Shown: piece by piece, positions 22,660 through 58,766 of the stretch | How positions within the stretch are numbered: the first letter of the stretch is position 1 | Layout of the letters: each line of letters begins with the position of its first letter | Origin: an uncultured Synergistia bacterium | GTDB lineage: Bacteria > Synergistota > Synergistia > CAYRKT01 | Direction: 5' to 3' | NCBI GenBank assembly: GCA_964425005.1 | Contig: CAYRKT010000002.1 | Location: 1 to 58,766, forward strand | Length of the DNA stretch: 58,766 bases | Made by a program: the position numbers and the translations under genes | The notes under the pieces: model-generated | What the model was told of the DNA's origin: nothing | Seen by the model: only the letters and a program-made list of their open reading frames with translations | The model's database searches: none

Positions 22660-23241
22660 TCAGGAGAAGAGCTTGGCGGCCACCTTAGGCTCCAGCTCCT
22701 CCCTGAGCGAGTCGAAGAGCCTCTCGACGGAGCAGTCGTAGGAGATCTGGCCGCAATCAACCCTGAACCCCCCGGAGAAGTTGCCGCGCGACGGAGAGAG
22801 GACGAAGGAGGTGCCGTTCCTCCTGTTGAAGCCCTCGACGAAGGAGGCGTCCAAGCGCCGCTCCTCCTTGGCCAGGGTGATGACCCCGGATTTGGCCTCC
22901 GAGGCCACCTTAGATAGGAGCGACTCCACCAGGGAGAGGTATTCCTTCTCCCCCATGGACACGACCATCCTGGCCGCCATCTCGAAGACCTCGTCCAAGA
23001 GCCCCCTCTGGGCTGCCAGGAGCTCCTTCTTGGCCTCCAAGGAGGCTACGATCTTGCCCCTCCGATGGAACTCCTCCGACTCCCTCCTGGCCCTCTCCGC
23101 GTAGCGCTCCCTGAGCGAGGAGGCCTCCTGCTCGGCCTCCCCCACTATCCTGGAGGCCTCGGCGTTAGCCCGCTCCAGGAGCTCGTTGACCTTGTCCTTC
23201 GCCTCGCTCAATATCTTCTGCTTTATCTTCTCAACAGCCAT
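22660..23241 (-). CDS. ntpE: V/A-type ATP synthase subunit E
   Basis: N-terminal coiled coil, GGFRV, DCSVE; operon position. Confidence 0.9.
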   Translation of the reverse strand: MAVEKIKQKILSEAKDKVNELLERANAEASRIVGEAEQEASSLRERYAERARRESEEFHRRGKIVASLEAKKELLAAQRGLLDEVFEMAARMVVSMGEKEYLSLVESLLSKVASEAKSGVITLAKEERRLDASFVEGFNRRNGTSFVLSPSRGNFSGGFRVDCGQISYDCSVERLFDSLREELEPKVAAKLFS

Positions 23242-23269
23242 CGAAGCTCCCCCCGATAAGGACGAGTCC

Positions 23270-23743
23270 TCAGAGGGAGATGCTGTTGAGCAGGATTATG
23301 GTTATGAGCAGGCTCAAGACGGCGTAGGTCTCCACCATCGCCGGGATGACGACGGCCTTACCGGTCTCCTCGGGCCGCTTGGCTATCATCTGGATGCAGG
23401 CCGCGGAGGCCCTGCCCTGAAATATGGCCGAAAGGAGGCCCACCAGGCCGACGGGCAGGCAGGCGAAGAATATGGCCAACCCCTGGAAGAGCGAGACCTG
23501 AGCCGGGGTTCCGCCGAGAAGGCCCAACTTCAGCATGACGAAGAAGGCGGCGAGAAGACCGTATATCCCCTGCGTCCCCGGCAGAACCTGGAGCAGCAGG
23601 ACCAAGCCGAACTTGTTGGGGTCCTCCGTGAGGACTCCAGCGCCCACCTCGCCGGCTATGCCCACGCCCCTGGCAGAACCTATGCCGGCCGCCAGAGCAG
23701 CCACCACAGCACCGCCTATAGCCACCAACATCCCGAGTTCCAT
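23270..23743 (-). CDS. ntpK: V/A-type ATP synthase subunit K (4-TM proteolipid, Na+-binding signature)
   Basis: GIGSARGVG, LPGTQGIYG, SAIFQG, MVETYA. Confidence 0.95.
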   Translation of the reverse strand: MELGMLVAIGGAVVAALAAGIGSARGVGIAGEVGAGVLTEDPNKFGLVLLLQVLPGTQGIYGLLAAFFVMLKLGLLGGTPAQVSLFQGLAIFFACLPVGLVGLLSAIFQGRASAACIQMIAKRPEETGKAVVIPAMVETYAVLSLLITIILLNSISL

Positions 23744-23782
23744 CCGCGCATCCCTCCTACGGCAAAACGATATAGACTGGGT

Positions 23783-25747
23783 TTAAACGCGAAACCTCAC
23801 GTACCTTCCGGCCAGAGCGAACGGCTTGAAGGGCTTGCCGCCGCCTTCGTAGAACTTGCTGAAGAACTCCACGTACTGCAGACGGGTGGTGTGGACGAAG
23901 GAGCCCAGCAGGTTGACCGCCAGGTTGAAAACGTGACCACCCACCAGCAGAAGCGCCGCCACCGCGAAGCCCACCACTGGGATCCCCCACGTGAGCGACA
24001 CCAACATGTTGACTATCATGGCCACCGCGGAGGTGGTCATGCCGAGGGCCAAGAGCCTGCTGTAGGAGAGCACGTCCCCCAGGAAACCCGTTATGTTGTA
24101 AAGCGACAAAACCCCTATGGCCAACCTCTTTACGGGGTTTCTGTGCCCTCTACCGGCAGAAAAGACTATCACCAATGCCCCCAGGGCCGCCAGGGCTTTG
24201 CCCATCGAGCCGAAGGAGCCACCCAAGACTCCGACCTCGTGCAAACCGAAGCACAGAAGGCCCACCACGAAGAGGAACCAGGAGAGGTGGTCGTAGACCC
24301 CCTCGAGCCACATCCCCCTGGAGGCCTTGCTGTAGAAGCCCACCAGGACCCCCACCAGGACGTGGACAACCCCTATGGCCAGGGCCAGCACGAGCAACTG
24401 TATGGTGTCCTTGAGCGGGTCGAAGAGGGCTATCGAGTTCTTGAGCGGGACGAACCACGAGAGGAAGGGCAAAACCTCGGCCAGGTTGCCCATCCAGCTG
24501 CCGAACAGAGCCCCCATCACTACGGTGGCGCCGCCGGAAAGGGCAAACATGGAGAGGAACCTCCCCTTATCGCCCCCCAGGTCGTACCTCAAGACCAGAT
24601 AGCCCAGGATCAAGGCTATAAGCCCGCCGTAGACCGCGTCGCTGTAGCAGAAGCCGAAGATGAAGGGGAAGAAAAGGGACAGCAGAGGAGAAGGGTCGAA
24701 GGTGCCGTACCTGGGCAAGCCGTAGAGCTTGACCAGGATCTCGTAGGGCCTGGCCCACCTGCCGTTCTCCAGGTGGACCGGTATATCTTCGCCCTCCTCG
24801 GGCTCGACCTCCAGTATCTCCAGGGAGTCGCGATACAACCTGCCCAGCTCCGATCTCAGAATGGGCAGATCCCTGGCCAGGACCCAGCCCTCGAGGAAGG
24901 CCACGTGGTCGGTGGAGCGGATGGAGCTCCTCACAGACGACTGCTCGACCAAGGAGGAGTAATAGTCGTAGGCCTCCTCCACCAGATCCCTCAGGGATAG
25001 AGCCGCCTCCTTTATCCTCTCCTCCAGCGCCCCCTTCCTCTGGCACAGCTCCGAGATCTCCCTCTCCACCTGGGACAGGGCCTCTCGAGGAAGACCCCTG
25101 CGCCTGACCTCCACGGATCCTACCTCCACGGAGCCCAAGATCTCCCTGACCTTCGCCTCCTCGGAGAGGTGGTAGACCAGGGCGAAGTAGACCGTGTCTC
25201 CGTCCCTGGAGGCCTCCAGAACCTGAGCGCACTCCAGGGCGGCTATCCTTCCGGACAAGGCGGAGAACACGGCTAAGTCGGAGCTCAAGAGCGAGGCCCT
25301 CGCGTGCCTGGTACCCGAGACCGCCAGGGAGAGGTCCATCTGGAGGGACGAGAAACGAAGTAGGACAGACCTCTCCGCTTCCAGGGACGACAGCTGAGAG
25401 GAGATGTGAGACAGCTCCCTCTCCATCTCCCTGAGCTCCGCTATCCTGTCGAAGAGCCCCTCCTCCTTTATCCTCCCGGCCACCTCCGGGAGCCCCACGA
25501 CCCTGGAAGGACCCGCAAGCCTCTCGGCCAGCGAGGATCTCCTGGGGGCGAACCTGTCTAAGACCTCCAGGGCGAACTTCACCTCCGACAGGGCCGACTC
25601 CAACTCCTTCGCCCTCCGTTCGGAGAGCGCCTCCCCGGAGTGGAGCTTGACCTCCATCACCCCTAAGGATTGAAGGTCTCCGATCAGGGACTCCTCGACG
25701 CTCCTGTGGAACACCAAGAGCAGCTTCCTAACCTCTGCCACCGCCAT
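23783..25747 (-). CDS. ntpI: V/A-type ATP synthase subunit I
   Basis: 654 aa; YGLPRYGTFDP, GFCYSDAVYG, DVLSYSRLLALG, HTTRLQYVEFF. Confidence 0.96.
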   Translation of the reverse strand: MAVAEVRKLLLVFHRSVEESLIGDLQSLGVMEVKLHSGEALSERRAKELESALSEVKFALEVLDRFAPRRSSLAERLAGPSRVVGLPEVAGRIKEEGLFDRIAELREMERELSHISSQLSSLEAERSVLLRFSSLQMDLSLAVSGTRHARASLLSSDLAVFSALSGRIAALECAQVLEASRDGDTVYFALVYHLSEEAKVREILGSVEVGSVEVRRRGLPREALSQVEREISELCQRKGALEERIKEAALSLRDLVEEAYDYYSSLVEQSSVRSSIRSTDHVAFLEGWVLARDLPILRSELGRLYRDSLEILEVEPEEGEDIPVHLENGRWARPYEILVKLYGLPRYGTFDPSPLLSLFFPFIFGFCYSDAVYGGLIALILGYLVLRYDLGGDKGRFLSMFALSGGATVVMGALFGSWMGNLAEVLPFLSWFVPLKNSIALFDPLKDTIQLLVLALAIGVVHVLVGVLVGFYSKASRGMWLEGVYDHLSWFLFVVGLLCFGLHEVGVLGGSFGSMGKALAALGALVIVFSAGRGHRNPVKRLAIGVLSLYNITGFLGDVLSYSRLLALGMTTSAVAMIVNMLVSLTWGIPVVGFAVAALLLVGGHVFNLAVNLLGSFVHTTRLQYVEFFSKFYEGGGKPFKPFALAGRYVRFRV

Positions 25748-32647: not shown

Positions 32648-32723
32648 TGGCTCCCCGGGCAGGACTCGAACCTGCAACCTAGTGGTTAACAGCCACCCGC
32701 TCTGCCGGTTGAGCTACCGGGGA
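32648..32723 (-). tRNA. tRNA-Asn (GTT)
   Basis: Cloverleaf, anticodon arm GGTGG-CTGTTAA-CCACT, CCA encoded, U1-A72. Confidence 0.97.
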
Positions 32724-32762
32724 ACCAGCGACGCCCAACTCGTCAACAACGCTTTTATCGTG

Positions 32763-32837
32763 TGGAGGCGGCACCCGGAATCGAACCGGGGAATAAGGGA
32801 TTTGCAGTCCCCTGCCTTACCACTTGGCTATGCCGCC
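32763..32837 (-). tRNA. tRNA-Cys (GCA)
   Basis: GGGGA-CTGCAAA-TCCCT arm, CCA encoded. Confidence 0.97.
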
Positions 32838-32852
32838 TAACCTCCAAAAGAA

Positions 32853-32927
32853 TGGAGCGGAAGACGGGATTTGAACCCGCGGCCCCCACCTTGGCAAGGT
32901 GGTGCTCTACCCCTGAGCTACTTCCGC
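32853..32927 (-). tRNA. tRNA-Gly (GCC)
   Basis: CCACC-TTGCCAA-GGTGG arm, CCA encoded. Confidence 0.97.
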
Positions 32928-32945
32928 TCACCCCTAGAACCTTTA

Positions 32946-33021
<76 letters not shown>

Positions 33022-33035
33022 TTACCCTCTTTTTA

Positions 33036-33113
33036 TGGCGGGGCTGACGGGACTTGAACCCGCGGCCTCTGACGTGACAGGCCAGCGCTCTGACCGTGCT
33101 GAGCTACAGCCCC
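33036..33113 (-). tRNA. tRNA-Asp (GTC)
   Basis: CTGGC-CTGTCAC-GTCAG arm, CCA encoded. Confidence 0.96.
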
Positions 33114-33126
33114 GCGATCTCTGCGT

Positions 33127-33201
33127 TGGTGGGCAGAACAGGACTCGAACCTGTGACCCCCTGCTTGTAAGGCAGGTGCTCTCCCTCTGAGCTATCCGCC
33201 C
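33127..33201 (-). tRNA. tRNA-Val (TAC)
   Basis: CCTGC-CTTACAA-GCAGG arm, CCA encoded. Confidence 0.97.
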
Positions 33202-46932: not shown

Positions 46933-46950
46933 ACAACTGAGGTGGTGGAC

Positions 46951-47382
46951 GTGCCGTTGAGGTTGGTCAGCGAGGCTTCGAGCATGGCGCTGCACGCCCT
47001 GAGGCTCCTGATGGAGGGGCCGATGACCGTGGACGAGATGGCCTCCCGGATGGGCGCCTCCAGGAACCATCTGGCGAAGGTGATGATGGAGCTGAGGAGG
47101 AGGGGGATAGTCCGCTCCAGGAGGGGACCCAGAGGGGGATTTGAGCTGGCCAGAGACCCAGGGGCCATAAGCGTCTTAGAGGTGGTGGAGGCCGTGGAGG
47201 GCAGGTTCGACGCGTCCGGCTGCCCCCTCGGCTTGCCCGGCTGTCCCTTCGCCCGCTGTCTCTTCGGGGCTCTCAGGGAGATCTCAGTCAAGGTGAGGTC
47301 CTTCATGGAGGGGACCACCATATCCCAGCTGGGAGGTGTCGAGGTTGGCGAGGAGGATCGAGATAGACGAGGATCTCTGTGA
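46951..47382 (+). CDS. Rrf2 family Fe-S transcriptional regulator (NsrR-like by context)
   Basis: S.RGPRGGFELARDP..ISVLEVVEAVEG; three C-terminal Cys (C-x6-C-x4-C); GTG 46951 after SD GAGGT. Confidence 0.92.
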   Translation: MPLRLVSEASSMALHALRLLMEGPMTVDEMASRMGASRNHLAKVMMELRRRGIVRSRRGPRGGFELARDPGAISVLEVVEAVEGRFDASGCPLGLPGCPFARCLFGALREISVKVRSFMEGTTISQLGGVEVGEEDRDRRGSL

Positions 47383-47983
47383 CGGCTGCGGGCGTTGCGT
47401 AGAAGCCTGCGCCGAAGGGGCGATAGCTCTGGTGGACGGCAAGGCCAAGGTCGTCGACCAGGGGGCATGCGACTTCATGGGGGCCTGCGTGGGAAGCTGC
47501 CCAAGGGGGGCGATAAGGATCTACGAGGAGAGCCCTTGCCCCTGCGCAGAGGGGAGGGAAGCGCGCCCGGCTCAGATGACCACGGGCGGGAACGAGGGAA
47601 GGGGGTTGGGCCCTGGGAGCTGGCCCATAAAGCTCAGGCTGATCCAGCCCAGCGCTCCTCAGCTCCTGGGCTCCGACCTGCTGATCTTCGCCGATTGCGC
47701 CTGTTTGGCCACGCCCGAGTCCCACGAGATTTCCAGGTCCAAGGTGCCCCTGATGGCCTGCCCCAAGTTCGACCCCCCGGAGGGGGTGTGGGACAAGCTA
47801 TCCCAGATCGTCGAAAGGGCCAAACCCAGATCGGTAACCGTGGTCTTCATGGAGGTCCCATGCTGCCACGGCGCGCTAGAGTTCGCCAGGAAGGCCTGCA
47901 GGGGCAAAACCCCCTTGAGGTGGATCATGGTTGGGGTAGACGGAAGGATCAGGGAGGCGAACCTATCGCACCCGGAGCTCTGA
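47336..47983 (+). CDS. 4Fe-4S ferredoxin-domain protein of the hcp-associated family
   Basis: CDGCGRCVEAC, CDFMGACVGSCP, WPIKL, ADC, CPKFD, MEVPCC. Confidence 0.85.
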   Translation: MSRLARRIEIDEDLCDGCGRCVEACAEGAIALVDGKAKVVDQGACDFMGACVGSCPRGAIRIYEESPCPCAEGREARPAQMTTGGNEGRGLGPGSWPIKLRLIQPSAPQLLGSDLLIFADCACLATPESHEISRSKVPLMACPKFDPPEGVWDKLSQIVERAKPRSVTVVFMEVPCCHGALEFARKACRGKTPLRWIMVGVDGRIREANLSHPEL

Positions 47984-48023
47984 GAGGGGGCGATGGGATC
48001 TCAGCGCGAGGAGGTAGAGGAGG

Positions 48024-49685
48024 ATGAGCATGTTCTGCTACCAGTGCGAGCAGGCGGCGAAAGGCGAAGGGTGCACCTCCTACGGGGTGTGCGGGAAGGA
48101 CCCCGAGACGGCGGCCCTGCAGGACCTGCTGGTCCACCTCTCCAAGGGCATAGCCTCTTACGCCTGGGAGGCCAGGAGGCGCACGGGGGCCTTCGACCCC
48201 GAGGTGGACAGATTTCTCCTGGAGGCCCTCTTCACCACGGTGACCAACGTGAACTTCGACCCCAAACCCATAGCCGAGATGATATGGAAGGCCAGGGAGA
48301 TGCTGGAGAGGGCGAAGGAGCTCTGCGAAGGAAGCCACCTCGGCTCAACCTCTCTGCCCGAGGTGGCCCTGAAGCTTGGGGCCTTCGAGCCGGCGAGCGA
48401 CGTGCAGGGACTGGTGCGGCAGGCCCAGGAGGCCTCGATCGAGAGGAGCATAGAGAGGATGGGGGAGGTAAGGGCTGGCCTCGCCTGGATGGGGATATAT
48501 GGGCTCAAGGGCGCGGCTGCCTACGCGGACCACGCCGCCATACTGGGCAAGAGCGACCCCGAGGTGATGGGAGAGTTCCAGAGGCTTCTGAGCGAGCTAT
48601 CCCGCGAAGAGCTACCCTTGGAGGACCTCGTGAGGCTAAACCTGGAGGTGGGGGCTCTAAACCTCAGGGCGATGGAGATGCTGGACGAAGCCAACAGGAG
48701 CTACGGGGATCCCTCCCCCACCAGGGTCAGGATCACCCCCATTAGGGGTAAGGCCATCTTGGTGTCAGGACACGACCTGAGGGACCTCCACGAGCTCCTG
48801 GAGCAGACCAGGGGCAAGGGGATAAACGTCTACACCCACGGGGAGATGCTCCCCGCCCACGGGTATCCGAAGCTCAGGGCCTACCCGCACCTGGTGGGAA
48901 ACTACGGAGGAGCCTGGCAAGACCAGCAGAGGGAGTTCGACGAGTTCAAGGGGGCTATCCTGATGACCACCAACTGCCTCCAAAAGCCCAGGGAGTCCTA
49001 CAGGCACAGGATCTTCACCACCGGACTGGTGGGCTGGCCCGGAGTGAGGCACATCCCCTGGAAAGGCAACGCCAAGGACTTCTCTCCGGTGATCGAAGCA
49101 GCGCTCGCGGAGCCGGGATTCGAGGAGGACGAACCCGACAGGAGGATCTGGGTGGGGTTCGGCCACGGCTTCCTGCTATCTAAGGCCAAAGAGATCTTGG
49201 AGCTGATCGAGAGGGGCAAGGTGAGACACATATTCCTGATAGGTGGCTGCGACGGAGCCAAGCCCGGCAGGAACTACTACACGGAGCTGGCCCAAAGGGT
49301 GCCCGAGGACTGCCTCATCCTCACCCTGGCCTGCGGCAAATACCGCTTCAACAAGCTGGACTTCGGGGAGATAGATGGGCTCCCCAGGCTGATGGACGTA
49401 GGGCAGTGCAACGACGCTTACTCCGCCGTCAAGGTGGCGCTCGAGCTGTCCAAAGCCCTGGGCAAGTCGGTGAACGAAATCCCCCTGTCCCTGATCCTCT
49501 CCTGGTACGAACAGAAGGCGGTGGCCATCCTGCTCACCCTCCTGCACCTGGGGATCAAGGGCATCAGGCTAGGTCCCTCCCTTCCCGCCTTCGCCAAGCC
49601 ACCCGTCCTGGGCTTCCTGAGGGAGAGCTTCGACCTCAAACCCATCAGCACCCCGGAGGAGGACCTGAGGGATATCCTGGGCTAG
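48024..49685 (+). CDS. hcp: Hybrid cluster protein (class I spacing)
   Basis: MFCYQCEQ, C-x2-C-x8-C-x5-C, SGHDL, THGEMLPAH, TNC, GGCDG, GQCNDAY, WYEQKA; 553 aa. Confidence 0.97.
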   Translation: MSMFCYQCEQAAKGEGCTSYGVCGKDPETAALQDLLVHLSKGIASYAWEARRRTGAFDPEVDRFLLEALFTTVTNVNFDPKPIAEMIWKAREMLERAKELCEGSHLGSTSLPEVALKLGAFEPASDVQGLVRQAQEASIERSIERMGEVRAGLAWMGIYGLKGAAAYADHAAILGKSDPEVMGEFQRLLSELSREELPLEDLVRLNLEVGALNLRAMEMLDEANRSYGDPSPTRVRITPIRGKAILVSGHDLRDLHELLEQTRGKGINVYTHGEMLPAHGYPKLRAYPHLVGNYGGAWQDQQREFDEFKGAILMTTNCLQKPRESYRHRIFTTGLVGWPGVRHIPWKGNAKDFSPVIEAALAEPGFEEDEPDRRIWVGFGHGFLLSKAKEILELIERGKVRHIFLIGGCDGAKPGRNYYTELAQRVPEDCLILTLACGKYRFNKLDFGEIDGLPRLMDVGQCNDAYSAVKVALELSKALGKSVNEIPLSLILSWYEQKAVAILLTLLHLGIKGIRLGPSLPAFAKPPVLGFLRESFDLKPISTPEEDLRDILG

Positions 49686-49740: not shown

Positions 49741-50322
49741 TCAGACGTGGATCGATCCCGAAGCCTTAACCCTCGCCTCCGAGGCCAGGCGCTCGATCTC
49801 CTCCAGGGAGCGGCGAAGGAGGGACAGGACCTCCGGGTGATCGTAGAGTTCGTCCCCCAACTCTTCCCTGATCTCGGAGGTGTCCAAGACGAACTCCTCC
49901 GAGTCGACGCGCCGAACGAACCTGAAGTCCACGTCCCTGTGGGCGCATATGCCCACCATCAGGGTGGAGACCAGATCCCCAAGGGGAGGCCTGTCCACGT
50001 GATCGAGGGAGAAACGAGCCCGCACCTCCGTCCCCTCGCCGGGCCTGGAGTTGAGTTCGAAGCTTCCGGCGCAGTGCTCCGCCGAGGCCCTGAGCAGAGG
50101 AAGGCCAAGGCCTACCCCTATCCTCTTCTTCCTCCCGGTGTAAAAGGGGTCCAAGGCCTTACAGGCCTCCTCCTCCGACATCCCGCAGCCGTCGTCCTTG
50201 ACGGCTATCTCCAGGTAGCCGGAACTGTGGTCCTCGAAGACCTCCACGGTTATGCGCTTAGCCCCAGCGGAGGCGCTGTTCTCTATGAGGTCCAGCACGT
50301 GCATGGACAGGTCCCTCATCAT
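49741..50322 (-). CDS. HATPase_c (histidine-kinase-like ATPase) of the hydrogenase-associated type
   Basis: MHVLDLIENS, DDGCGM, DPFYT, GLGLPL, RPPLGDL; no HisKA or receiver domain. Confidence 0.85.
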   Translation of the reverse strand: MMRDLSMHVLDLIENSASAGAKRITVEVFEDHSSGYLEIAVKDDGCGMSEEEACKALDPFYTGRKKRIGVGLGLPLLRASAEHCAGSFELNSRPGEGTEVRARFSLDHVDRPPLGDLVSTLMVGICAHRDVDFRFVRRVDSEEFVLDTSEIREELGDELYDHPEVLSLLRRSLEEIERLASEARVKASGSIHV

Positions 50323-50344
50323 CAAGGCGGAGACCACCCCCGCT

Positions 50345-50698
50345 CTAGGACCTAAGCCCCCTTATCCCCATGGAGTAGAGCCTTCCCACCGCCTCGAAAG
50401 CGGGAAGCGGCGTCCTTATGAGGGTGAGCCCCCTCTCCCTGGCCTTCTCCACCACCGAGGGCTCCACAGAGGCGCCGTCGGCCACCACCAGCGCGGAGGC
50501 CTCCACCAGCAACGCCACAGCCACGGCGTTTATGTGGCTCTGCACGGTGACCCACAAGACGCCGGGAGCACCCCTCTTCATCACGTCGCTCATGAGGTCC
50601 GAGGCTATGCCGTAGGAGACCTCGACGGAGCCCTCTTCGCCACCGGCCAGGACCTCCCCCTCTAAGGCCCTCAACAACTCGGTCAGCTCGAGCTTCAA
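50345..50698 (-). CDS. DRTGG-domain protein
   Basis: SDLMSDV, WVTVQSHINAVAVA, AFEAVGRLY. Confidence 0.85.
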   Translation of the reverse strand: MKLELTELLRALEGEVLAGGEEGSVEVSYGIASDLMSDVMKRGAPGVLWVTVQSHINAVAVALLVEASALVVADGASVEPSVVEKARERGLTLIRTPLPAFEAVGRLYSMGIRGLRS

Positions 50699-50716
50699 AC
50701 CGACACCCCCATGGAC

Positions 50717-52039
50717 CTACTTCTCGAGCGGAAGCTTTATCATCTCCAGTATCTCCCTCGTCAGATCGCCCACCCTGCGCCTCTGCTCGTAGACGCAGTC
50801 GGTGACCTTGCCCTGTCCTCTCACCACGTCCTCCGCCAGCGCCCTGCAGGAGGGCCTCCCGCAGAAGCCGCAGTTTATCCCGGGCAACCTGTCGTGGACT
50901 ATCTGGAGCTGGTGGAGCTTCTCCATCGACTCCCGGAGGTCCGAGGACAGAGGCAGCCTCGGCCTGGCCCGGATGGGAAACTCCAGCGAGGTGAAACCCC
51001 TGGCGTGGAGCTCCTCCAGGAGGGATAACCTCTCCTCGGAGGGATTCCAGTCGGGCACCCGGTGGGGCACGGTCTGGGAGGCTATGAAGCGAGACTCACC
51101 CGCGAGTATCCCCCCCACGCACCCCTTGTCGCAGACCCTGCCCTCCACGTAGTCGACCCCTCTGAGCTTGCCCAGCTCCACCTCCTCCACCACCTCCATC
51201 ACGTTCCTCATCCCCGAGACCACCACCGCCCTGAAGGGCTCCCCGTTGCCGAAGATCCTCCAGAACATGGAGAGGTGGTCGGACTCACCCCCCAGCACCG
51301 CCCACCTGATCCACCGGGAGAAGTCGGAGGACGGGAGGCTGTCGCCGACGCTGGGCCTCTTGGCCAGGTTCACTATATCCCTGTAGACCCAGTTCATCCC
51401 CACCGCGTAAGACATGTGGCTGGCCCTTCTGCCCTCCGGATACTTGGCCATGCCGATCTTCGCCGGGCAGGGGGAGACGAAGACGAAGGGCTTCCCTCCC
51501 ACCCCCCTGGACTCCGAGAGGGCAGCGGCCACCTCTAGGGGATTCTCCACCGGAGTGAGCCTGGAGACCAACGAGGGATACTTGACCTGGACCAGCCTCA
51601 AGACGGCGGGACAGTAGACGGATATCATCGGCCTGGACTCCCTCGGAACGCTCAGGACGTGCTTCACCGTGGCGAAGGCCACCAGATCATAGGCTATCTC
51701 CATCTCCTCTATCAAGTCCTTGTAGCCCAGGGCGCCCATCAAGGAGGAGACCTCCCTGGGGTCCTGGAGGTGGGCGAACTGGGTGTACATCACGGGATCG
51801 CAGATCAGCACTCTGTCGGAGGTGCTGTTCCTCAGTATCTCCCACTCGTCCTCCTCCACCGCTATGAAGTCAGAACAAACCCTCTTGCACTCCCCGCAGT
51901 TTATGCACAGCTCGGGGATGATCTTCAAAAACCCGCTGTACCACCTCATGGCCTCGGTGGGACAGGCCTTTATGCAGTTTATCCCCTCCTTGCAGTACTT
52001 GCCCACAGGCCTAATCACGACACCGTGTCTGTCGGTCAA
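50717..52039 (-). CDS. [FeFe]-hydrogenase-like Fe-S protein (ferredoxin + degenerate H-domain + C-terminal FeS domain), likely sensory
   Basis: C..G..C...CP and CINCGEC...C; P1 SVYCPA, P2 SPCPAK, P3 EGRVCDKGCVGG; LPGINCGFCGRPSC...C. Confidence 0.8.
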   Translation of the reverse strand: MTDRHGVVIRPVGKYCKEGINCIKACPTEAMRWYSGFLKIIPELCINCGECKRVCSDFIAVEEDEWEILRNSTSDRVLICDPVMYTQFAHLQDPREVSSLMGALGYKDLIEEMEIAYDLVAFATVKHVLSVPRESRPMISVYCPAVLRLVQVKYPSLVSRLTPVENPLEVAAALSESRGVGGKPFVFVSPCPAKIGMAKYPEGRRASHMSYAVGMNWVYRDIVNLAKRPSVGDSLPSSDFSRWIRWAVLGGESDHLSMFWRIFGNGEPFRAVVVSGMRNVMEVVEEVELGKLRGVDYVEGRVCDKGCVGGILAGESRFIASQTVPHRVPDWNPSEERLSLLEELHARGFTSLEFPIRARPRLPLSSDLRESMEKLHQLQIVHDRLPGINCGFCGRPSCRALAEDVVRGQGKVTDCVYEQRRRVGDLTREILEMIKLPLEK

Positions 52040-52054
52040 AGCGACCTAACCCCC

Positions 52055-52498
52055 CTACCCCTCCATAATCCTGACCGAGGCCCAGAGCTTCGTCCCCCGG
52101 CCGACCTCGCTCTCGATGCGCATCTCGTCGGAGTTCTTCTTTATGTTGGGAAGGCCCATCCCCGCCCCGAACCCCAGCTCCCTTATGTGGTCGGGCGCCG
52201 TGGAGTACCCCTCCTTCATGGCCAGCTCTATGTCCTCTATGCCCGGGCCGTCGTCCTCAGCCAGTATAACTATCTCGTCAGGGTAGACCAAAGCCTTCAA
52301 GGTCCCTCCCCCCGCGTGGATCACCAGGTTCATCTCCGCCTCGTAGGCTATGACGGCAACCCGCCGGTATATCTCCGGCGAGAGGCCCAGCATCTTGAGG
52401 ACTTCCTTTATCTGGGTGGAGGCGAGTCCAGCGCCGACGAAATCCCCACCCTTGACGTCGAACTCCACGGAGTAGACCAGCTTCTTGGAGGAGGACAT
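52055..52498 (-). CDS. RsbT-like anti-sigma Ser/Thr kinase (HATPase_c)
   Basis: YEAEMNLVIHAGGG, DDGPGIEDIELAMKEGYST, GAGMGLPN. Confidence 0.9.
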   Translation of the reverse strand: MSSSKKLVYSVEFDVKGGDFVGAGLASTQIKEVLKMLGLSPEIYRRVAVIAYEAEMNLVIHAGGGTLKALVYPDEIVILAEDDGPGIEDIELAMKEGYSTAPDHIRELGFGAGMGLPNIKKNSDEMRIESEVGRGTKLWASVRIMEG

Positions 52499-52510
52499 GC
52501 CCTTTAAGAG

Positions 52511-52879
52511 CTAAAACACCCTATCCCTGCACACCAAGCAGGGCGAAAGCCCCTCGGCGTAGAGCCTTCCACACGCCTCGAACATGGTCATGGGCGTGAG
52601 GAGCAAGGGCACGCCCAGAGCGGAAGCCGACCTCACCACGTCCTCCGAGGGGACCTTACCCCTCACGAACAGGACGGCGGGCACGTCCAGCATGTGCACA
52701 GTCCTCATCAGCTGGATGTGCGTGAGGCCGGTTATCAACAGGGTTCCAGCGCAGGCGAAGGCCAGGATGTCGCTCAGCAGGTCACAGGCGTAGGCGTTGG
52801 GGACAGCTATGGAATCCAGCTTGTCCTCGCAACACAGCACCTTGGCCCCTACCAATTCCCTCACCGTAGAGAGCAACAA
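52511..52879 (-). CDS. DRTGG-domain protein
   Basis: CDLLSDIL, LITGL, FVRGK, MFEACGRLY. Confidence 0.87.
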   Translation of the reverse strand: MLLSTVRELVGAKVLCCEDKLDSIAVPNAYACDLLSDILAFACAGTLLITGLTHIQLMRTVHMLDVPAVLFVRGKVPSEDVVRSASALGVPLLLTPMTMFEACGRLYAEGLSPCLVCRDRVF

Positions 52880-53030: not shown

Positions 53031-53059
53031 TTGACTGGGCCTCTCGGGGCGGATAAAAT
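53031..53059 (+). promoter_or_regulatory. sigma70-type promoter of the T-box/lysW operon
   Basis: TTGACT-17 bp-TAAAAT. Confidence 0.85.
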
Positions 53060-53084
53060 CCTCTCACGAAAGCCGAACAAGCCC

Positions 53085-53337
53085 GGCGATGACCGAGGGA
53101 GGGTCTTTCCCAGAAGCCCAACAGAGAGGGGGCTCCACCGGCTGAGAGGGCCCCTGGGGTGGGGGTTAGATCCAAAGCCCTCGCGAGCCTCGGCCGAAAG
53201 GGTTCTCCCGGAGTAGGCCGCGGGGGGCTCCCGTTAAAGGGCCGACGAGGGGAAGAGGGGGGACGCAAGGGTTTCTTCTCTTCCACTAGGGTGGTACCGC
53301 GGGCCGAAAGCTCGTCCCTAGAGGGACGAGCTTTTTT
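53085..53337 (+). ncRNA. T-box riboswitch (transcriptional), probable Lys (AAA) specifier
   Basis: K-turn GGC-GAU-GA/GA-GCC, AG bulge CAGAGAG, GCUGAG distal loop, stem II with GAA/AGUA S-turn, CCGUUA box, stem III, AGGGUGGUACCGCG (53288-53301), terminator. Confidence 0.92.
53310..53337 (+). terminator. T-box attenuator terminator
   Basis: GCTCGTCCC-TAGA-GGGACGAGC-TTTTTT; its 5' strand is shared with the antiterminator. Confidence 0.9.
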
Positions 53338-53378
53338 GTTTAGGTCGACCCAGCGCGAGGAGGTGTTCTGAGGTGGAG

Positions 53379-53555
53379 ATGACGAGGATCGAGGCGATGT
53401 GCGAGGTGTGTGGAGGGGAACTGGAGATCGGGTCCGGCGTGGAGCTGGGCGAGATAGTGGTATGCTCCGACTGCGGGACGGAGCTGGAGGTGGTCTCGTT
53501 GGATCCTGTGGTCCTGGAGAGGGCCCCCGAGGTCCAGGAGGACTGGGGGGAGTAA
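53379..53555 (+). CDS. lysW: Amino-group carrier protein LysW
   Basis: CEVC...CSDC zinc ribbon, GEIV.C..CG.ELEV, acidic, C-terminal EDWGE. Confidence 0.96.
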   Translation: MTRIEAMCEVCGGELEIGSGVELGEIVVCSDCGTELEVVSLDPVVLERAPEVQEDWGE

Positions 53556-53561: not shown

Positions 53562-54410
53562 ATGAGGCCCTCGCTGGTGGTCCTAAACGACGTCTTCTCC
53601 TTCGAGACCAGGCTGCTCCTGGAGGCAGCCGACTCGGTCGGCGTGAGCTGCAGGACCGTGGAGGTCTCCTCGGGCCTCTGGTTCGACCAGCTGGACCCCG
53701 CGCTTCCCTGTTGGAACCTCATCTCGTCGCCGGTGGCCAGGGCTGCGGTGTCCTCCTCCCTTCGCGGGCGAGGGCTTAAGCCCTTGAACCTCGCGTTAGC
53801 CGAAGGGAGCGCCGTCGACGTGGCCTCTACCCTGCACGACCTAAGCCTCGAGGGCCTCACCAGCGAGGTCTTCCTGCTCTTCCGCGAGCCCCAGGTCAAG
53901 GAGCTCATCGCCCAGGGGAGGTTGAGGTACCCCTTCTGGATAAGAGGGAGCAGGCGAGGGAGGGGGGACATCAGGACCCTGGTCAGGAGCGAGGCCGCCC
54001 TGGAGGCGGTGCTGGAGCACCGGGAACACCTGGTCGACGAGCCCTTCGTGGTCCAGGTCCACCCCGAGGCGGACGCCATGGCCAGGCTGACCATCATAGG
54101 GAGCAGGAGGTTCTGGAGCCAGGGGGCGATATCCCCCAGCGGCAGACATGCTCTAGCGCCGTGCGACGAGACGGAAGAGCTCTCCGACATCGCAGCGAGG
54201 TTGTGCCGATACCTGCGGGACAGGTTCGGGACCCCACTCTGGGCCCAGTTCGACCTGCTCATCTCGCGAGGAGGAAGGGGATTTTGGGTCTTCGACCTCT
54301 CGGATCTGCCCGAGCTGATGCCCCTAAAGGATAGGAGGGCTGAGCTGGTGGAGGCTCTGGCCTCGGTCGTCGAGGAGGTGATGGCCGATGGAGGAGGGCA
54401 AACCCTCTAA
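53562..54410 (+). CDS. Highly diverged LysX/RimK-like ATP-grasp protein (probable pseudo-enzyme)
   Basis: Position right after lysW; E.RLLLEAA..G, EAVLEHRE, FDL..S..G, PEL resemble LysX; the DK, KP..GSWG, NT.RG and EVN motifs are absent. Confidence 0.7.
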   Translation: MRPSLVVLNDVFSFETRLLLEAADSVGVSCRTVEVSSGLWFDQLDPALPCWNLISSPVARAAVSSSLRGRGLKPLNLALAEGSAVDVASTLHDLSLEGLTSEVFLLFREPQVKELIAQGRLRYPFWIRGSRRGRGDIRTLVRSEAALEAVLEHREHLVDEPFVVQVHPEADAMARLTIIGSRRFWSQGAISPSGRHALAPCDETEELSDIAARLCRYLRDRFGTPLWAQFDLLISRGGRGFWVFDLSDLPELMPLKDRRAELVEALASVVEEVMADGGGQTL

Positions 54411-54501: not shown

Positions 54502-54536
54502 GGCCCGCAGGCTTCAGCTTGCGGGCCTCGTCTTTT
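54502..54536 (+). terminator. Possible intercistronic terminator/attenuator hairpin
   Basis: GGCCCGCAGGC-TTCA-GCTTGCGGGCC followed by TCGTCTTTT. Confidence 0.4.
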
Positions 54537-54551: not shown

Positions 54552-55295
54552 TTGAACGAGGTGACCTTGGAGGGCGAGATAGTCGAGATAGGACCGGATC
54601 GCATAAGGGTCAGGGGCGTGGACATAGAGGAGCTCATAGAGGGCTGGAGCTACCCGGAGGTCTTTTGGTTTCTGCTCACCGGCAGGAGGCTGAGCTCGAG
54701 GGAGAGGAGGATGCTCGAGGCCATACTGGTGGCCATGTGCGACCACGGCCCAACGCCTCCCAGCACCCAGGCGGCCAGGCTCGTGGCCTCCACCGGCTCC
54801 CCCATGCACGCGGCCCTGGCGGCAGGGCTCTTGGGCTTCGGAGATCACCACGCCGGGGCCATAGAGCTGGCCATGAGGGTGCTCCAGGAGGCGGTGCGAT
54901 CTGCGGAGCTCGGCAGAGACGAGCTCAAAGGGACGGCGGAGAGGCTCGTGGAGGACTTCCTGGACAGAGGGGAAAGGGTGCCGGGCTTCGGACACAGGTA
55001 CCACAGGAGGGATCCCAGACCCCCTGCCCTGGTCAGGTTGGCCGAGAGGCTCTCCATGGTGGGACCCCACCTGAGGCTCGCCCTGGAGATGGAGGAGGTC
55101 CTCCTGTCCAGGAAGGGCATAAGGATGAACATCGACGGGGCGAGCGGGGCGATCCTGAGCGACATGGGGCTCTCGTGGCGCGTAGGCAGAGGGGTCTTCG
55201 CCCTGGGAAGGATGTCGGGCCTGATAGCGGAGGTTATGGTGGAGATATCGTGCTACAAGCCGTTCAGGAAGTTCCACGAGATAAAGGCCAGTTGA
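54552..55295 (+). CDS. Citrate synthase-fold protein (short citryl-CoA lyase / archaeal citrate synthase-like)
   Basis: 247 aa; DHGPTPPSTQAARL, GDHHAGAIE, PGFGH, DPR, MNIDG (His-His-Asp triad intact); TTG after SD GGAGGTG. Confidence 0.9.
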   Translation: MNEVTLEGEIVEIGPDRIRVRGVDIEELIEGWSYPEVFWFLLTGRRLSSRERRMLEAILVAMCDHGPTPPSTQAARLVASTGSPMHAALAAGLLGFGDHHAGAIELAMRVLQEAVRSAELGRDELKGTAERLVEDFLDRGERVPGFGHRYHRRDPRPPALVRLAERLSMVGPHLRLALEMEEVLLSRKGIRMNIDGASGAILSDMGLSWRVGRGVFALGRMSGLIAEVMVEISCYKPFRKFHEIKAS

Positions 55296-55315: not shown

Positions 55316-56344
55316 TTGAAGGTGGCTGTATTCGGAGCGTCCGGGTTCGTGGGAGGAGAGCTCTTGAGGCTCATAGCCCTCCATCCGCAGATGGAGCTCT
55401 CGGCGGCGTCCTCCAACACCTTCGCCGGGGAGATGGTCTGGACGAGGCACCCGCACCTCAGGCCCGTATACCCCTCCTTGAAGTTCTGCGCGCCCGAGGA
55501 GGCCATTGGAGCGGACTTCGACCTGGCCTTCCTGGCCCTGGAGCACGGGAGGTCCGCCGAGGTCGCGGGGAAGATCCACGACAGCGGCAGGCTCGTGGTG
55601 GATCTGAGCGCAGACCTCAGGCTCAAGGACCCCGAGGCCTACAGGAGGTGGTACGGCAGGAATCACCCAAGGCCGGACCTCCTCTCCAGGGCCGTCTACG
55701 GGCTTCCAGAGCTGCACCGCGAGGAGCTCAAGGGGGCGACTTTGGCCTCCGGGGTGGGCTGCAACGCCACCGCCGTGAACCTGGCGCTCAAGCCCCTCAA
55801 GGGCCTCCTTCGGGAGGTCGTGGCCGACGTGAGGGCTGGCTCTTCCGAGGGAGGAGCTCGTCCCAGCGAGGGCTCCCATCACCCCATAAGGAGCAGGGCC
55901 CTCAGGCTCTACTCCGTGGGGAAGCACAGGCACATGGCCGAGGTGTGCCAGGAGATGGAGCTCCCAGAGGAGGCTATATCCTTCTCCGTCACGGCGGTGG
56001 AGCTGGTGAGGGGGGTTCAGGCGGTGGTCAGGTGCAGGCTGAGCGAGCGCCTGACCGAGAAGGAGCTGTGGGGGCTCTTCAGGAACGCCTACAAGGGAAG
56101 CCCCTTCGTCTCCCTGTGCCCCGCCAACCCACCCCACCTACGACTGCCGGACCCCAGGTGGGTCACGGGCAGCAACCACGCCATGATAGGCTTCGTCCAG
56201 GAGGGGGAAGATCGGGTGGTGGTGGTCTCGGTGCTGGACAACCTCGTCAAGGGCTCCGCCGGGACGGCCGTGGCCTGCGCCAACCTGATGGTGGGCCTGC
56301 CGGAGGAGACCGGCCTGAACCAAAGCCCCATATTCCCTGTATGA
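55316..56344 (+). CDS. lysY: [LysW]-aminoadipyl/glutamyl-phosphate reductase (LysY/ArgC family)
   Basis: GASGFVGGELLRL, DLSADLR, AVYGLPE, GCNAT, GSSEGG, DNLVKGSAG; TTG 55316 after SD GAGGAGGTG. Confidence 0.92.
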   Translation: MKVAVFGASGFVGGELLRLIALHPQMELSAASSNTFAGEMVWTRHPHLRPVYPSLKFCAPEEAIGADFDLAFLALEHGRSAEVAGKIHDSGRLVVDLSADLRLKDPEAYRRWYGRNHPRPDLLSRAVYGLPELHREELKGATLASGVGCNATAVNLALKPLKGLLREVVADVRAGSSEGGARPSEGSHHPIRSRALRLYSVGKHRHMAEVCQEMELPEEAISFSVTAVELVRGVQAVVRCRLSERLTEKELWGLFRNAYKGSPFVSLCPANPPHLRLPDPRWVTGSNHAMIGFVQEGEDRVVVVSVLDNLVKGSAGTAVACANLMVGLPEETGLNQSPIFPV

Positions 56345-56352
56345 AGGAGGCG

Positions 56353-57168
56353 ATGGGGGTGCTGGTGGTCAAGATAGGCGGGGGAAGGGGGAACAGGCTG
56401 GACGAGCTCTGCAAGGAGGTCAAAGCCCTCTGGGAAGAGGGCGAGAGGCTGGTGCTGGTCCACGGGGTGAGCGACGCCATGGACGCCCGCTCGGCGGAGC
56501 TCGGCCTGGAGCCCAGGTACCTCGTGAGCCCCAGCGGGTTCAGGAGCAGGTTCGTCGGGGAGAGGGAGAGGGACGTCTACCTGGGCGTTTGCCTCGAGGT
56601 CGGCGCGAGGATCTGCTCCACCCTGCACGCCATGGGGGTCAGGGCCGTCGCCCTCTGGGGAGGTAGCGGAGCCCTCGCCGAGGGAGAGAGGAAGGAGGCG
56701 CTCCGCTACGTGGAGAACGGCAAGGTCAAGGTGGCCAAGGGCAACTGGAGCGGGGTGGTGAGGTCCGTGAACGCCAGGGTGATCGAGGTCCTGCTGGAGG
56801 GGGGCTTTCTGCCGGTGGTCTCCCCCGTGGCCGTGACGCCGGAGGGATTGCCCCTCAACGTGGACGGCGACAGGATGGCAGCGGCCATCGCCTCGGCCCT
56901 GAGGGCCGAGGCCCTGGTGATCCTCTCCAACGTCCCCGGGCTCCTGGAGCGCCTGGAAGACCCAGGGAGCCTGGTCAGGAGGATACCCTTCGAGGACCTG
57001 GAGGACTACGACGGCCTCGCCAAGGGGAACATGAAGAGAAAGCTATTGGCCGCGAGGGAGGCCTTGGAGGGCGGGGTGGAGAAGGTGATCATCTCGGACA
57101 GCAGGGTGGAAAGACCGATAGGGTCCGCCCTGGCGGGAGGTGGGACCTGGATATGTCGAGCTTTCTAG
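56353..57168 (+). CDS. lysZ: [LysW]-aminoadipate/glutamate kinase (LysZ/ArgB family)
   Basis: VVKIGG, LVHG, SPSGFRSR, NVDGDRMAA, LSNVPGLL, GNMKRKL. Confidence 0.92.
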   Translation: MGVLVVKIGGGRGNRLDELCKEVKALWEEGERLVLVHGVSDAMDARSAELGLEPRYLVSPSGFRSRFVGERERDVYLGVCLEVGARICSTLHAMGVRAVALWGGSGALAEGERKEALRYVENGKVKVAKGNWSGVVRSVNARVIEVLLEGGFLPVVSPVAVTPEGLPLNVDGDRMAAAIASALRAEALVILSNVPGLLERLEDPGSLVRRIPFEDLEDYDGLAKGNMKRKLLAAREALEGGVEKVIISDSRVERPIGSALAGGGTWICRAF

Positions 57169-58325
57169 ATATAGAATCGCGCTTCGGACCCGGCATAACC
57201 GCCACCAGGGAGGTCTGCCTGGTGAGGGGAGAGGGGTCGTGGGCCTTCGACGAGTCCGGGAGAAGGTACCTGGACTTCAGCATGGCCCACGGATCGGTGG
57301 CCCTAGGACACGCCCATCCAGCCGTGGCATCGGCGATGAAGAGGGCGCTCGAGGAGGGGATCTTGAACTGCGGGATGGGCTTCTCCTCCCCCTTCAGGGC
57401 CAGGTTGCTCGAGAGGCTTTGTCAGGGTCTGGGAGGCAAGTTCCGGGGCTTTCTCGCCAACTCGGGCGCGGAGGCGATAGAGACCGCCATAAAGCTGTGC
57501 GCCCTAAAGAGGCCCGGCAGGAAGAGGTTCGTGGCCCTCAGGAGGTCCTTCCACGGCAGGACCCTGGGGGCTTCGTCCCTTACCTTCAACCCCAACTACA
57601 AGAGGGGGTTGGAGCACCTCCTGCTCGAGGTGGACTTCATCAGACCCATCGAGGAGGACCTGGACAGGGTCGACGAGGGGGTGGCCGCGGTCTTCGTAGA
57701 GCCGGTCCAGGGGGAGGGCGGCGTATATCCCCTGCCCCCCGACTTCCTCAGGGCCCTCAGGTCCCGCTGCGACGAGGTGGGTTCCCTGCTGGTGGCCGAC
57801 GAGGTCCAGTGCGGCTTCTTCAGGTGCGGTTCTCTGGCCCTGTCCGTCGAGGACGGCATATCCCCCCACGTGGTCTGCCTGGCCAAGGGGATGGCGAACG
57901 GCATCCCCATAGGGGCGTGCCTGTGGAGGGAGGAGCTAGGCCCCCTACCCCCCAAGGTCCACGGGACCACCTACGGCGGAAACCCGCTGGTCTGCGCCGT
58001 GGCCCTCGCCGTACTGGACGTAGTCGAGGAGGAGCGCCTGGGCGAAAGGGCCACCAGGATGGGGCGAGGGCTCATCTCCCTGATCGAGGAGGCCAGGCAC
58101 CCCCGCGTCAAGGAGGTAAGGGGGAGAGGACTCCTGGTTGGGGTGGAGCTCACAGGGCCAGTCGCGGAGGAGGTGGTCAGATCCCTCCAGGGGAAGGGAG
58201 TCCTGGCGCTCACCACCTCCAACAGGTCGGTGGTTAGGTTCATGCCGTCCCTCCTGGTCTCCGAGGAGGAGCTCGAGCTCGCCGCCTCCGCCCTGCTCAG
58301 CGCCCTCGACGAGTTGGAGCGATGA
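57153..58325 (+). CDS. lysJ: [LysW]-aminoadipate-semialdehyde transaminase (LysJ/ArgD, class III PLP)
   Basis: YLDF, LGHAHP, NSGAEAIE, SFHGRT, EPVQGEGG, DEVQ, LAKG, HGTTYGGNP. Confidence 0.92.
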   Translation: MSSFLDIESRFGPGITATREVCLVRGEGSWAFDESGRRYLDFSMAHGSVALGHAHPAVASAMKRALEEGILNCGMGFSSPFRARLLERLCQGLGGKFRGFLANSGAEAIETAIKLCALKRPGRKRFVALRRSFHGRTLGASSLTFNPNYKRGLEHLLLEVDFIRPIEEDLDRVDEGVAAVFVEPVQGEGGVYPLPPDFLRALRSRCDEVGSLLVADEVQCGFFRCGSLALSVEDGISPHVVCLAKGMANGIPIGACLWREELGPLPPKVHGTTYGGNPLVCAVALAVLDVVEEERLGERATRMGRGLISLIEEARHPRVKEVRGRGLLVGVELTGPVAEEVVRSLQGKGVLALTTSNRSVVRFMPSLLVSEEELELAASALLSALDELER

Positions 58326-58766
58326 GGCCCACAGGCCCCTTCGAAGCAGAGGCCGTAGAGCTCCTGAAGGCCCTGGTGGAGACGGAAAGCCCCACCGGCC
58401 GCGAGGACGAGGCCGTAGGGCTCTTCGTCGAGGCGGCCAGGTCCATGGGGCTTGAGGCCGGCAGGGACGAGGCGGGAAACGGCGTGGCCGCAAAGGGCGA
58501 AGGAGGAAGGCGCATCTACCTGGTAGGCCACATAGACACGGTCCCGGGGAGCATACCCGTGAGGATCGAGGGAGGGGAGCTCTGGGGGAGGGGAAGCGTG
58601 GACGCCAAGGGGGCGCTGGCGGCCATGCTGGTGGCCCTCGCGAGGGCCAGCCTGAGGCCAGGCCTGGAGGTGCGCCTGTTCGCCTGCGTCGACGAGGAGG
58701 GAAGGAGCAGGGGGGCAAGGCACCTCCTGGGGTCCGCGCCGGAGCCAGAGGGGGTCGTGGTGGGAG
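58322..58766 (+). CDS. lysK: [LysW]-lysine/ornithine hydrolase LysK (M20 family), truncated by window end
   Basis: ATG 58322 overlaps the lysJ stop; SPTGRE, GHIDTVPG, LWGRGSVDAKG, DEEG. Not in the ORF track because it has no stop in the window. Confidence 0.9.
   Translation, partial: MRPTGPFEAEAVELLKALVETESPTGREDEAVGLFVEAARSMGLEAGRDEAGNGVAAKGEGGRRIYLVGHIDTVPGSIPVRIEGGELWGRGSVDAKGALAAMLVALARASLRPGLEVRLFACVDEEGRSRGARHLLGSAPEPEGVVVG

Follow-up and report, generated by a model that had tools for sequence, protein, structure and literature searches.

The DNA analyzed here is a stretch of 58,766 nt from an uncultured Synergistia bacterium (positions 1 to 58,766 of contig CAYRKT010000002.1, assembly GCA_964425005.1; hereafter the window), which ends within an operon for lysine biosynthesis via the amino-group carrier protein LysW. 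Inside the window the operon comprises, in this order and all on the forward strand, a T-box leader, lysW, a divergent lysX, a gene of the citrate synthase family that resembles citryl-CoA lyase (CCL), lysY, lysZ, lysJ, and lysK (Table 1). LysW with its EDWGE motif, LysY, LysZ, LysJ, and LysK, by which a LysW-mediated α-aminoadipate (AAA) operon for lysine is recognized, were all found. The subject of this study is the CCL-like gene. Judging by gene context alone, we consider it somewhat probable that its product condenses acetyl-CoA and 2-oxoglutarate in an AAA pathway that is independent of LeuA.

The open reading frame (ORF) of the CCL-like gene is real: it starts with TTG, which is preceded by a GGAGG at a distance of 9 nt, and codes for 247 amino acids, and its GC content at third codon positions of 0.85 matches that of the neighboring genes. 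The protein matched the Pfam family Citrate_synt (PF00285) with 148.9 bits (cut-off 27, E 2.5e-43). This match is restricted to profile positions 163-349, i.e. the C-terminal two-thirds, which corresponds to the short CCL-module architecture without the N-terminal citrate synthase region. In addition, the protein scored 289 bits against the NCBIfam model NF004866 “citryl-CoA lyase” (cut-off 245), and its top solved relative is the citryl-CoA lyase of Hydrogenobacter thermophilus (6HXP, E 1e-48), which has a similar size and about 42% identity. An AlphaFold model built with 34 homologues (pLDDT 87, pTM 0.86) superimposed on 6HXP with TM-scores of 0.85/0.82; the CCL modules of ATP-citrate lyases came next, and full-length citrate synthases overlaid the model only in part (TM ~0.7 on partial chains). 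The nearest named relatives are “citryl-CoA lyase” proteins of Methanothermobacter and Methanobacterium with 52-54% identity. These results bear out the original prediction, made from the sequence alone, of a short single-domain enzyme of the citrate synthase/CCL fold that resembles methanogen-type CCL proteins. The Pfam/NCBIfam-type searches detected no HMGL-like DRE-TIM domain in the protein, Citrate_synt being the sole kind of match. The CCL-like protein therefore lies outside the canonical LeuA/HMGL homocitrate synthase family (EC 2.3.3.14), and our claim is that it works like a homocitrate synthase, not that it is a member of that family.

The active-site residues of citrate synthase from Escherichia coli are H229, H264, H305, R314, D362, F383, R387, and R407 (PMC13147460). 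Alignment to this list revealed that all of them are kept in the CCL-like protein, as H65, H100, H148, R156, D195, F216, R220, and R239/K240, respectively. The catalytic His-His-Asp corresponds to H100 in GDHHAGA, H148 in GFGH, and D195 in NID (H264, H305, and D362 in E. coli), the oxo-acid-binding set consists of H65, R156 in DPR, R220, and R239/K240, and F216 matches F383. The catalytic triad is thus intact, as had been predicted; the histidine of a DHG motif that had been assigned to it, however, is H65, which aligns with the oxaloacetate-binding H229 and is not catalytic. The H. thermophilus enzyme and the CCL module of ATP-citrate lyase share the catalytic His/His/Asp as well as the oxaloacetate-binding His and Arg residues. 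The bacterial members of the CCL-like group are set apart by two features, namely the GDHH motif immediately preceding the catalytic His and an arginine (Arg213) three positions N-terminal to Phe216; neither occurs in citrate synthase, the methanobacterial proteins, or the Aquificae enzyme. The positions at which the window protein differs from its relatives (V11, G14, Y34, L47, G95, and S222) are all located outside the mapped active site.

The part of the operon beyond the window end was read from contigs of the same species that carry an identical or 98%-identical CCL-like protein (e.g. L007). There, lysK is followed by a gene for an HD protein (182 aa), two pairs of aconitase-type large and small subunits (AcnL1/S1, 424 + 171 aa; AcnL2/S2, 419 + 170 aa), and a dehydrogenase (349 aa), before the convergent selB. 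Within the archaeal-type LeuC/LeuD-HacA/HacB group, to which both pairs are assigned, AcnL2/S2 is canonical (507 and 184 bits) and AcnL1/S1 distinctly more divergent (396 and 130 bits). A homologue search found the close relatives of AcnL1 confined to cassettes of this kind (100, 83, and 53% identity, the last two in the loci L081 and L082/L083 described below), with all other proteins at 49% or below. The loop of the small subunit reads YLH(L/I) in AcnS1 versus YTYT in AcnS2, each conserved across lineages; for comparison, it is YLRT in the homoaconitase and YLVYT in the isopropylmalate isomerase of M. jannaschii. The HD/HDIG protein (~185 aa) is likewise conserved in the cassettes (L007 14847-15395, L082 2822-3391, L081 1448-2002). 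Its gene lies invariably directly 5' of the divergent aconitase-type large subunit gene, which it overlaps in L082. The protein had no relative in the PDB at E≤0.01 and only generic HD/HDIG matches. The dehydrogenase is of the β-decarboxylating type and falls into the isopropylmalate/homoisocitrate/isocitrate group.

Table 1 Features of the lysine operon within the window.
Feature	Position	Strand	Evidence
Sigma-70-like promoter, TTGACT-17-TAAAAT, upstream of the leader	53031..53059	+	Consensus match only, 10/12
T-box leader	53080..53335 (Rfam match 53080-53322)	+	RF00230, 65.7 bits, E 5e-14
lysW, amino-group carrier protein, C-terminal EDWGE	53373..53555	+	TIGR01206, 76.5 bits (cut-off 53.2); Pfam Zn_ribbon_LysW, E 3e-18
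lysX-like gene, highly divergent, in the position of the ATP-grasp ligase	53562..54410	+	Colinearity with LysX of L077
GC-rich hairpin, 11 bp, followed by TCGTCTTTTC (T-rich tail)	54502..54527	+	Scan for terminator-like elements; lies within the 141 nt that separate lysX from the CCL-like gene
CCL-type gene of the citrate synthase family (proposed condensing enzyme)	54552..55295	+	Profiles, structure relatives, model
lysY, [LysW]-aminoadipyl-phosphate reductase, ArgC family	55316..56344	+	TIGR01850 argC, 339 bits on the identical L007 protein; start and ribosome-binding site from sequence
lysZ, [LysW]-aminoadipate kinase	56341..57168	+	NF010659 equivalog, 299 bits (cut-off 223)
lysJ, class-III aminotransferase	57153..58325	+	Aminotran_3, E 4e-88; LysJ/ArgD models 270-320 bits, under equivalog cut-offs
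lysK, [LysW]-lysine hydrolase, M20, truncated by the window end	58322..58766	+	NF003367, 362.8 bits (cut-off 363), full L007 protein

All steps from 2-oxoglutarate to lysine are represented in the operon except for a recognizable homocitrate synthase and a 2-oxoadipate aminotransferase. We searched for LeuA/HMGL-type genes with the pattern H.H..[ND]D.G in six-frame translations of the window and the cassette loci and by Pfam scans of the 20 other large ORFs of the window. In the ~70 kb covered, no such gene was present in the operon string, the remaining window, or the related cassette loci, which leaves the CCL-like protein as the sole candidate for a C-C bond-forming enzyme in the operon. 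The enzyme might instead be a short citrate synthase or citryl-CoA-forming enzyme that acts on oxaloacetate and supplies 2-oxoglutarate, with AcnL1/S1 serving as aconitase, the dehydrogenase acting on both isocitrate and homoisocitrate, and homocitrate being derived from a LeuA-type enzyme elsewhere or from a second, iterative round. We regard this as rather unlikely, although it is favored by the facts that every oxaloacetate-binding residue of citrate synthase is unchanged in the CCL-like protein, that two aconitase-type pairs could fit two chain lengths, and that the dehydrogenase is slightly closer to NAD-isocitrate dehydrogenases (242 bits) than to the homoisocitrate dehydrogenase (HICDH) of Thermus (212 bits). 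Iterative use of a single set of synthase, isomerase, and dehydrogenase has a precedent in the synthesis of coenzyme B in methanogens (PMC3087415). Against such a supply function stands the dehydrogenase itself, which lacks an equivalent of Asn115 of isocitrate dehydrogenase (ICDH; RSAIV versus RSVNV), and a homocitrate-forming step would still be required, for which none of the operons contains a LeuA-type gene.

The linkage of CCL-like genes to lysine genes is not restricted to the window. It occurs in at least four bacterial lineages, represented by the window, L077, L075, and L082/L083. The cases with lysine linkage were found on contigs from metagenomes and Logan/NCBI, and the GTDB representatives include no close relative of the window species. 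On L077, a metagenome contig of 231 kb, lysW is followed by a canonical lysX (LysX_arch, 269 bits), a CCL-like gene whose product is 45% identical to that of the window, and lysYZJK. Here, the lys operon encodes no enzyme for the steps before aminoadipate other than the CCL-like protein, which fits the committed step of the pathway, and fits it better than a supply of 2-oxoglutarate. On the short contig L075, the CCL-like gene directly precedes lysY. An AT-rich genome present in two NCBI assemblies (L082/L083) harbors a T-box, a CCL-like gene (59% identity), HD, AcnL, AcnS, AcnL, AcnS, the dehydrogenase, and a 2-hydroxyacid dehydrogenase, and a relative with 83-93% identity (L081) has the same string of lysJ, lysK, HD, AcnL1-S1-L2-S2, and dehydrogenase. 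In a neighbor-joining tree, the lysine-linked proteins were found in both bacterial clades, which flank the methanobacterial/Aquificae branch. A lack of conserved linkage to lysW would have spoken against the original prediction of a non-orthologous homocitrate synthase; the linkage in L077, L075, and L082/L083 shows the opposite, and together with the LeuA-less operon this recurrence supports the prediction from gene context alone.

That the enzyme works in the lyase direction, on citryl-CoA or homocitryl-CoA, or that its gene is a mere passenger outside lysine synthesis, appears improbable to us. The closest characterized relative, 6HXP, is indeed a lyase, but neither citryl-CoA synthetase nor any other CoA ligase or transferase is encoded in any lysine-linked cluster, and genes for succinyl-CoA-synthetase-like proteins or citryl-CoA synthetase were also absent within 10 kb in the window and all related loci. 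Most members of the family are not linked to lysine genes; where the linkage exists, the position between lysX and lysY is kept at 45% identity, and the gene co-occurs with the cassette in four lineages. The terminator-like hairpin between lysX and the CCL-like gene would be in line with a passenger, whereas the gene itself has a ribosome-binding site and ends 20 nt upstream of lysY. The hairpin could act as an internal attenuator or terminator, or as an RNA-stability element that separates lysWX expression from that of the downstream genes.

The predicted regulation of the operon provides a further link to lysine. Three promoter-like sites were detected in the region compared to 0.2 expected. 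The leader itself covers the whole length of the T-box model, carries the conserved T-box sequence AGGGUGGUACCGCG, and ends in an intrinsic terminator (53306-53335). In the minimum free energy fold, stem I has a 3' bulge with the sequence AAAG (53174-53177) that adjoins the basal helix; no other base on this side of the stem is unpaired there. In characterized T-boxes, the specifier codon followed by a purine is located at the stem I bulge beside the basal helix, and we accordingly read the predicted bulge as the Lys codon AAA plus purine. No lysine riboswitch was detected 5' of lysW at the Rfam gathering score or at E≤10; the prediction that the operon is regulated by lysine thus holds through a probable T-box leader with a putative AAA specifier and not through a riboswitch. 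The leader of the AT-rich L082 locus (L082 1712-1993; RF00230, 57.9 bits) has a 3' bulge AAAAG beside the basal helix. It has a GC content of 41% compared to 67% in the window leader, and the helix sequences of the two are completely different. In both leaders, stem I nevertheless has the same architecture, with a long upper helix in addition to the basal helix, one A on the 5' side, and an A(A)AAG bulge on the 3' side. The conservation of this T-box in two lineages despite diverged helices argues for tRNA-Lys control of the cassette itself, and such control in turn suggests that the cassette product is committed to lysine and not to a general supply of 2-oxoglutarate; for a central metabolite, a tRNA-Lys T-box would be odd. 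As a separate observation, both Lys-type T-boxes score below gathering, and in the predicted fold their specifier region is reduced to a 3' bulge of 4-5 nt plus one A on the 5' side, and an S-turn motif is not apparent. The two T-boxes may represent a variant stem I architecture.

The window lysX-like gene deserves separate mention. Over 260 aa, its product can be aligned colinearly with the canonical LysX of L077, with 23% identity and a pairwise E-value of 8e-5, and the RimK family hidden Markov model matched it with an E-value of only 0.0028. The protein had no match in Pfam or the PDB, and no relative beyond its own lineage was found in libraries of 5.8e9 and 1.8e9 proteins, including an exhaustive HMMER search. 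The orthologue in a sister lineage is intact (81% identity). The Mg-binding NEVN of ATP-grasp LysX proteins reads FDLS in the window protein, and an AlphaFold model from three sequences had a pLDDT of 43, which is too low for use. The protein may be a ligase that evolves fast and has acquired a different specificity, or else a partner without catalytic function. LysW-type carrier systems operate in secondary metabolism as well. One could therefore imagine that the LysW-carrier pathway of the window leads to a product other than lysine, or that a different pair of acyl-CoA and oxo acid yields a non-standard amino acid, in which case the orphan lysX-like sequence might reflect altered specificity and the HD protein and the extra aconitase pair, which have no role in the textbook pathway, would find an explanation. 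We consider this very doubtful in view of the Lys AAA specifier read in both leaders, the canonical LysX in L077, and the match of LysK at the [LysW]-lysine hydrolase cut-off. LysZ, moreover, passes the [LysW]-aminoadipate kinase equivalog, which we count toward a lysine pathway.

If the CCL-like protein is the condensing enzyme of this pathway, it would use His100, His148, and Asp195 to convert acetyl-CoA and 2-oxoglutarate into homocitryl-CoA or homocitrate. To our knowledge, all members of the citrate synthase fold attack the si face, and every described homocitrate synthase, whether for lysine, the nitrogenase cofactor, or coenzyme B, is a LeuA-type, re-face enzyme. Derivation by the Cahn-Ingold-Prelog rules indicates that re-face attack on 2-oxoglutarate would give (R)-homocitrate and that a si-face enzyme would give (S)-homocitrate. 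The predicted product of the CCL-like enzyme is thus the mirror image of the one formed by LeuA-type enzymes, and an ordinary homoaconitase would face the wrong arm of the molecule. As cited in PMC3087415, the relatives of Re-citrate synthase are the homocitrate and isopropylmalate synthases and not si-citrate synthase (Li et al. 2007). The original prediction had pointed out that an unusual dehydratase would be needed. A candidate pair, AcnL1/S1, is indeed encoded just past the window end; its cassette specificity makes it a natural candidate for a dedicated dehydratase. AcnL1/S1 would dehydrate (S)-homocitrate to cis-homoaconitate, and the HD protein might, speculatively, assist in this step by removing a thioester or by isomerization. 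AcnL2/S2 would then rehydrate cis-homoaconitate to homoisocitrate, which the dehydrogenase would convert to 2-oxoadipate, and after transamination the intermediate would proceed to lysine through LysW/X/Y/Z/J/K. Uncharged tRNA-Lys would switch on the operon through the T-box.

Parallels to known systems exist for individual parts of this scheme. The CCL-like gene occupies the same slot in AAA/LysW clusters as the genes for LeuA-type homocitrate synthases (Thermus homocitrate synthase, yeast Lys20/21, NifV, and AksA of methanogens) and shares lysine-controlled expression with them, but the folds are unrelated, and, by analogy with si- and re-citrate synthases, the opposite facial selectivity is expected, with (S)- and not (R)-homocitrate as the predicted product. 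Unlike its counterpart in H. thermophilus, the window gene has no citryl-CoA synthetase partner nearby and is embedded in a lysine operon, and the direction proposed for the enzyme is synthesis, not cleavage. The closest analogy for handling the product is the 2-methylcitrate cycle, in which the product of PrpC cannot be dehydrated by ordinary aconitase and requires PrpD (or AcnD/PrpF) before AcnB acts. In a similar way, an additional, divergent pair of the aconitase type accompanies the CCL-like gene, and a PrpD-family gene accompanies its methanobacterial homologues. The substrates differ, however, and the candidate dehydratase is a LeuC/LeuD-type pair plus the HD protein, not PrpD or AcnD/PrpF. 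A division of the isomerization of homocitrate to homoisocitrate is also known from fungal and Thermus AAA pathways. The Thermus homoaconitase is known only for the hydration step. In the fungal pathway, two aconitase-family enzymes perform dehydration and hydration (PMC3556520). In contrast to the scheme proposed here, homocitrate stems from a LeuA-type synthase in these organisms, and the first dehydratase is a housekeeping aconitase and not an operon-encoded LeuCD-type pair.

Beyond the lysine-linked cases, CCL-like genes are found in other settings. At 40 CCL loci from GTDB species representatives, neither lysine nor aconitase genes were located within 10 kb. About 30 methanobacterial loci contain a tight and widely conserved operon of genes for a PrpD-like protein, an unknown protein of ~300 aa, a FumA-like protein (Fe-S hydrolyase alpha), and CCL, often beside the A-type ATPase operon. 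According to a preprint (10.1101/2022.10.25.513756), Methanobacteria possess only CCL. Their orphan CCL proteins (e.g. of M. marburgensis) belong to the same NCBIfam subfamily as the window protein, and no citryl-CoA synthetase gene was found in the flanks that we read of either. They differ in the operon with PrpD and FumA and the absence of lysine genes from it, and they have G(K/Q)NH instead of GDHH and lack Arg213. The neighboring PrpD-family gene is consistent with the CCL-like group feeding dehydratase/hydratase pairs and suggests that the methanobacterial operon encodes an uncharacterized synthase-dehydratase pathway. In the closest bacterial relatives, with 60% identity (L001, L002, L009, L010, L049, L050, L074), the CCL gene is always followed by a gene for a protein of 228 aa of the Asp/Glu-racemase superfamily, which matched the NCBIfam model PRK07475 “hypothetical protein” with 264 bits and aspartate racemase only weakly. 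One idea is that this partner is an isomerase that handles the synthase product. Some CCL-like homologues are solitary. The solitary gene of “Bacterium M3-1” is flanked by glutamine-synthetase-like and TRAP transporter genes, and a c-di-AMP riboswitch (L045 7155-7287, reverse strand, 101.6 bits) lies near it.

A number of observations weigh against homocitrate synthesis by the CCL-like protein. Contexts other than lysine prevail, at about 70 of the ~80 homologous loci that we examined, and the only biochemically characterized member of the group known to us is the citryl-CoA lyase of Aquificae. As a bona fide CCL is selected against citryl-CoA hydrolysis, net synthesis may need an extra thioesterase. 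Comparison of the window protein with 120 homologues revealed no pocket residue unique to the lysine-linked proteins: GDHH and Arg213 are common to linked and non-linked bacterial members, and non-linked relatives that are ~60% identical to the lysine-linked proteins have an indistinguishable oxo-acid pocket. The substrate segment RSAIV of the dehydrogenase corresponds neither to that of ICDH (RSVNV) nor to that of Thermus HICDH (FGAIRY), and the enzyme is a hybrid at the positions of ICDH S113/N115 and Thermus HICDH R85. The score of the window T-box is below the Rfam gathering score of 93, and its specifier is based on a predicted fold. Finally, a LeuA-type synthase could be encoded elsewhere in these genomes, beyond the ~70 kb that we searched.

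The remainder of the window contains features of different functions. Just 5' of the lys operon, on the reverse strand (49741-52879), five genes encode a HATPase protein, a DRTGG protein, a protein with a [FeFe]-hydrogenase large-subunit C-terminal and an FeS domain, a HATPase_c_2 anti-sigma-like kinase, and a DRTGG-like protein; this module looks like a hydrogenase-like sensory/regulatory unit. It is preceded on the forward strand (46942-49685) by genes for an Rrf2-family regulator, a multi-[4Fe-4S] ferredoxin, and a hybrid-cluster protein (553 aa), which are kept in contigs of the same species. A complete dcw cluster (mraW, PBP, murE, murF, mraY, murD, ftsW, murC, murB, ftsA), the RNase P RNA, a V/A-type ATPase operon, and six tRNA genes (Asn, Cys, Gly, Phe, Asp, Val) are located at 113-15121, 15709-16044, 17468-25747, and 32648-33201, respectively, all on the reverse strand, and the window also holds purCSQL.

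Taken as a whole, the cassette may represent an undescribed bacterial route to lysine, in which a CCL-type synthase forms (S)-homocitrate or its CoA ester, which is then processed by the HD protein, a LeuCD-type dehydratase, a canonical homoaconitase, and the dehydrogenase. By extension, the orphan CCLs of Methanobacteria and other bacteria might be synthases of unknown tricarboxylate pathways. We put this broader view forward tentatively, and hold it to be less certain than the role of the CCL-like protein as condensing enzyme. In the literature that we searched, neither citryl-CoA lyase nor citrate synthase is linked to LysW or to the formation of homocitrate. If true, a si-face enzyme of the citrate synthase fold would clearly have displaced a non-orthologous enzyme at the committed step of a pathway, and the finding would illustrate how the opposite chirality of a product can be accommodated, for which the methylcitrate cycle is a known example. 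Genomes of the window type would be scored by pathway prediction as missing the first AAA step, and automated annotation currently treats orphan CCLs as markers of the reductive tricarboxylic acid cycle. For these widespread “orphan” citryl-CoA lyases, a function in lysine biosynthesis would be the first physiological role.

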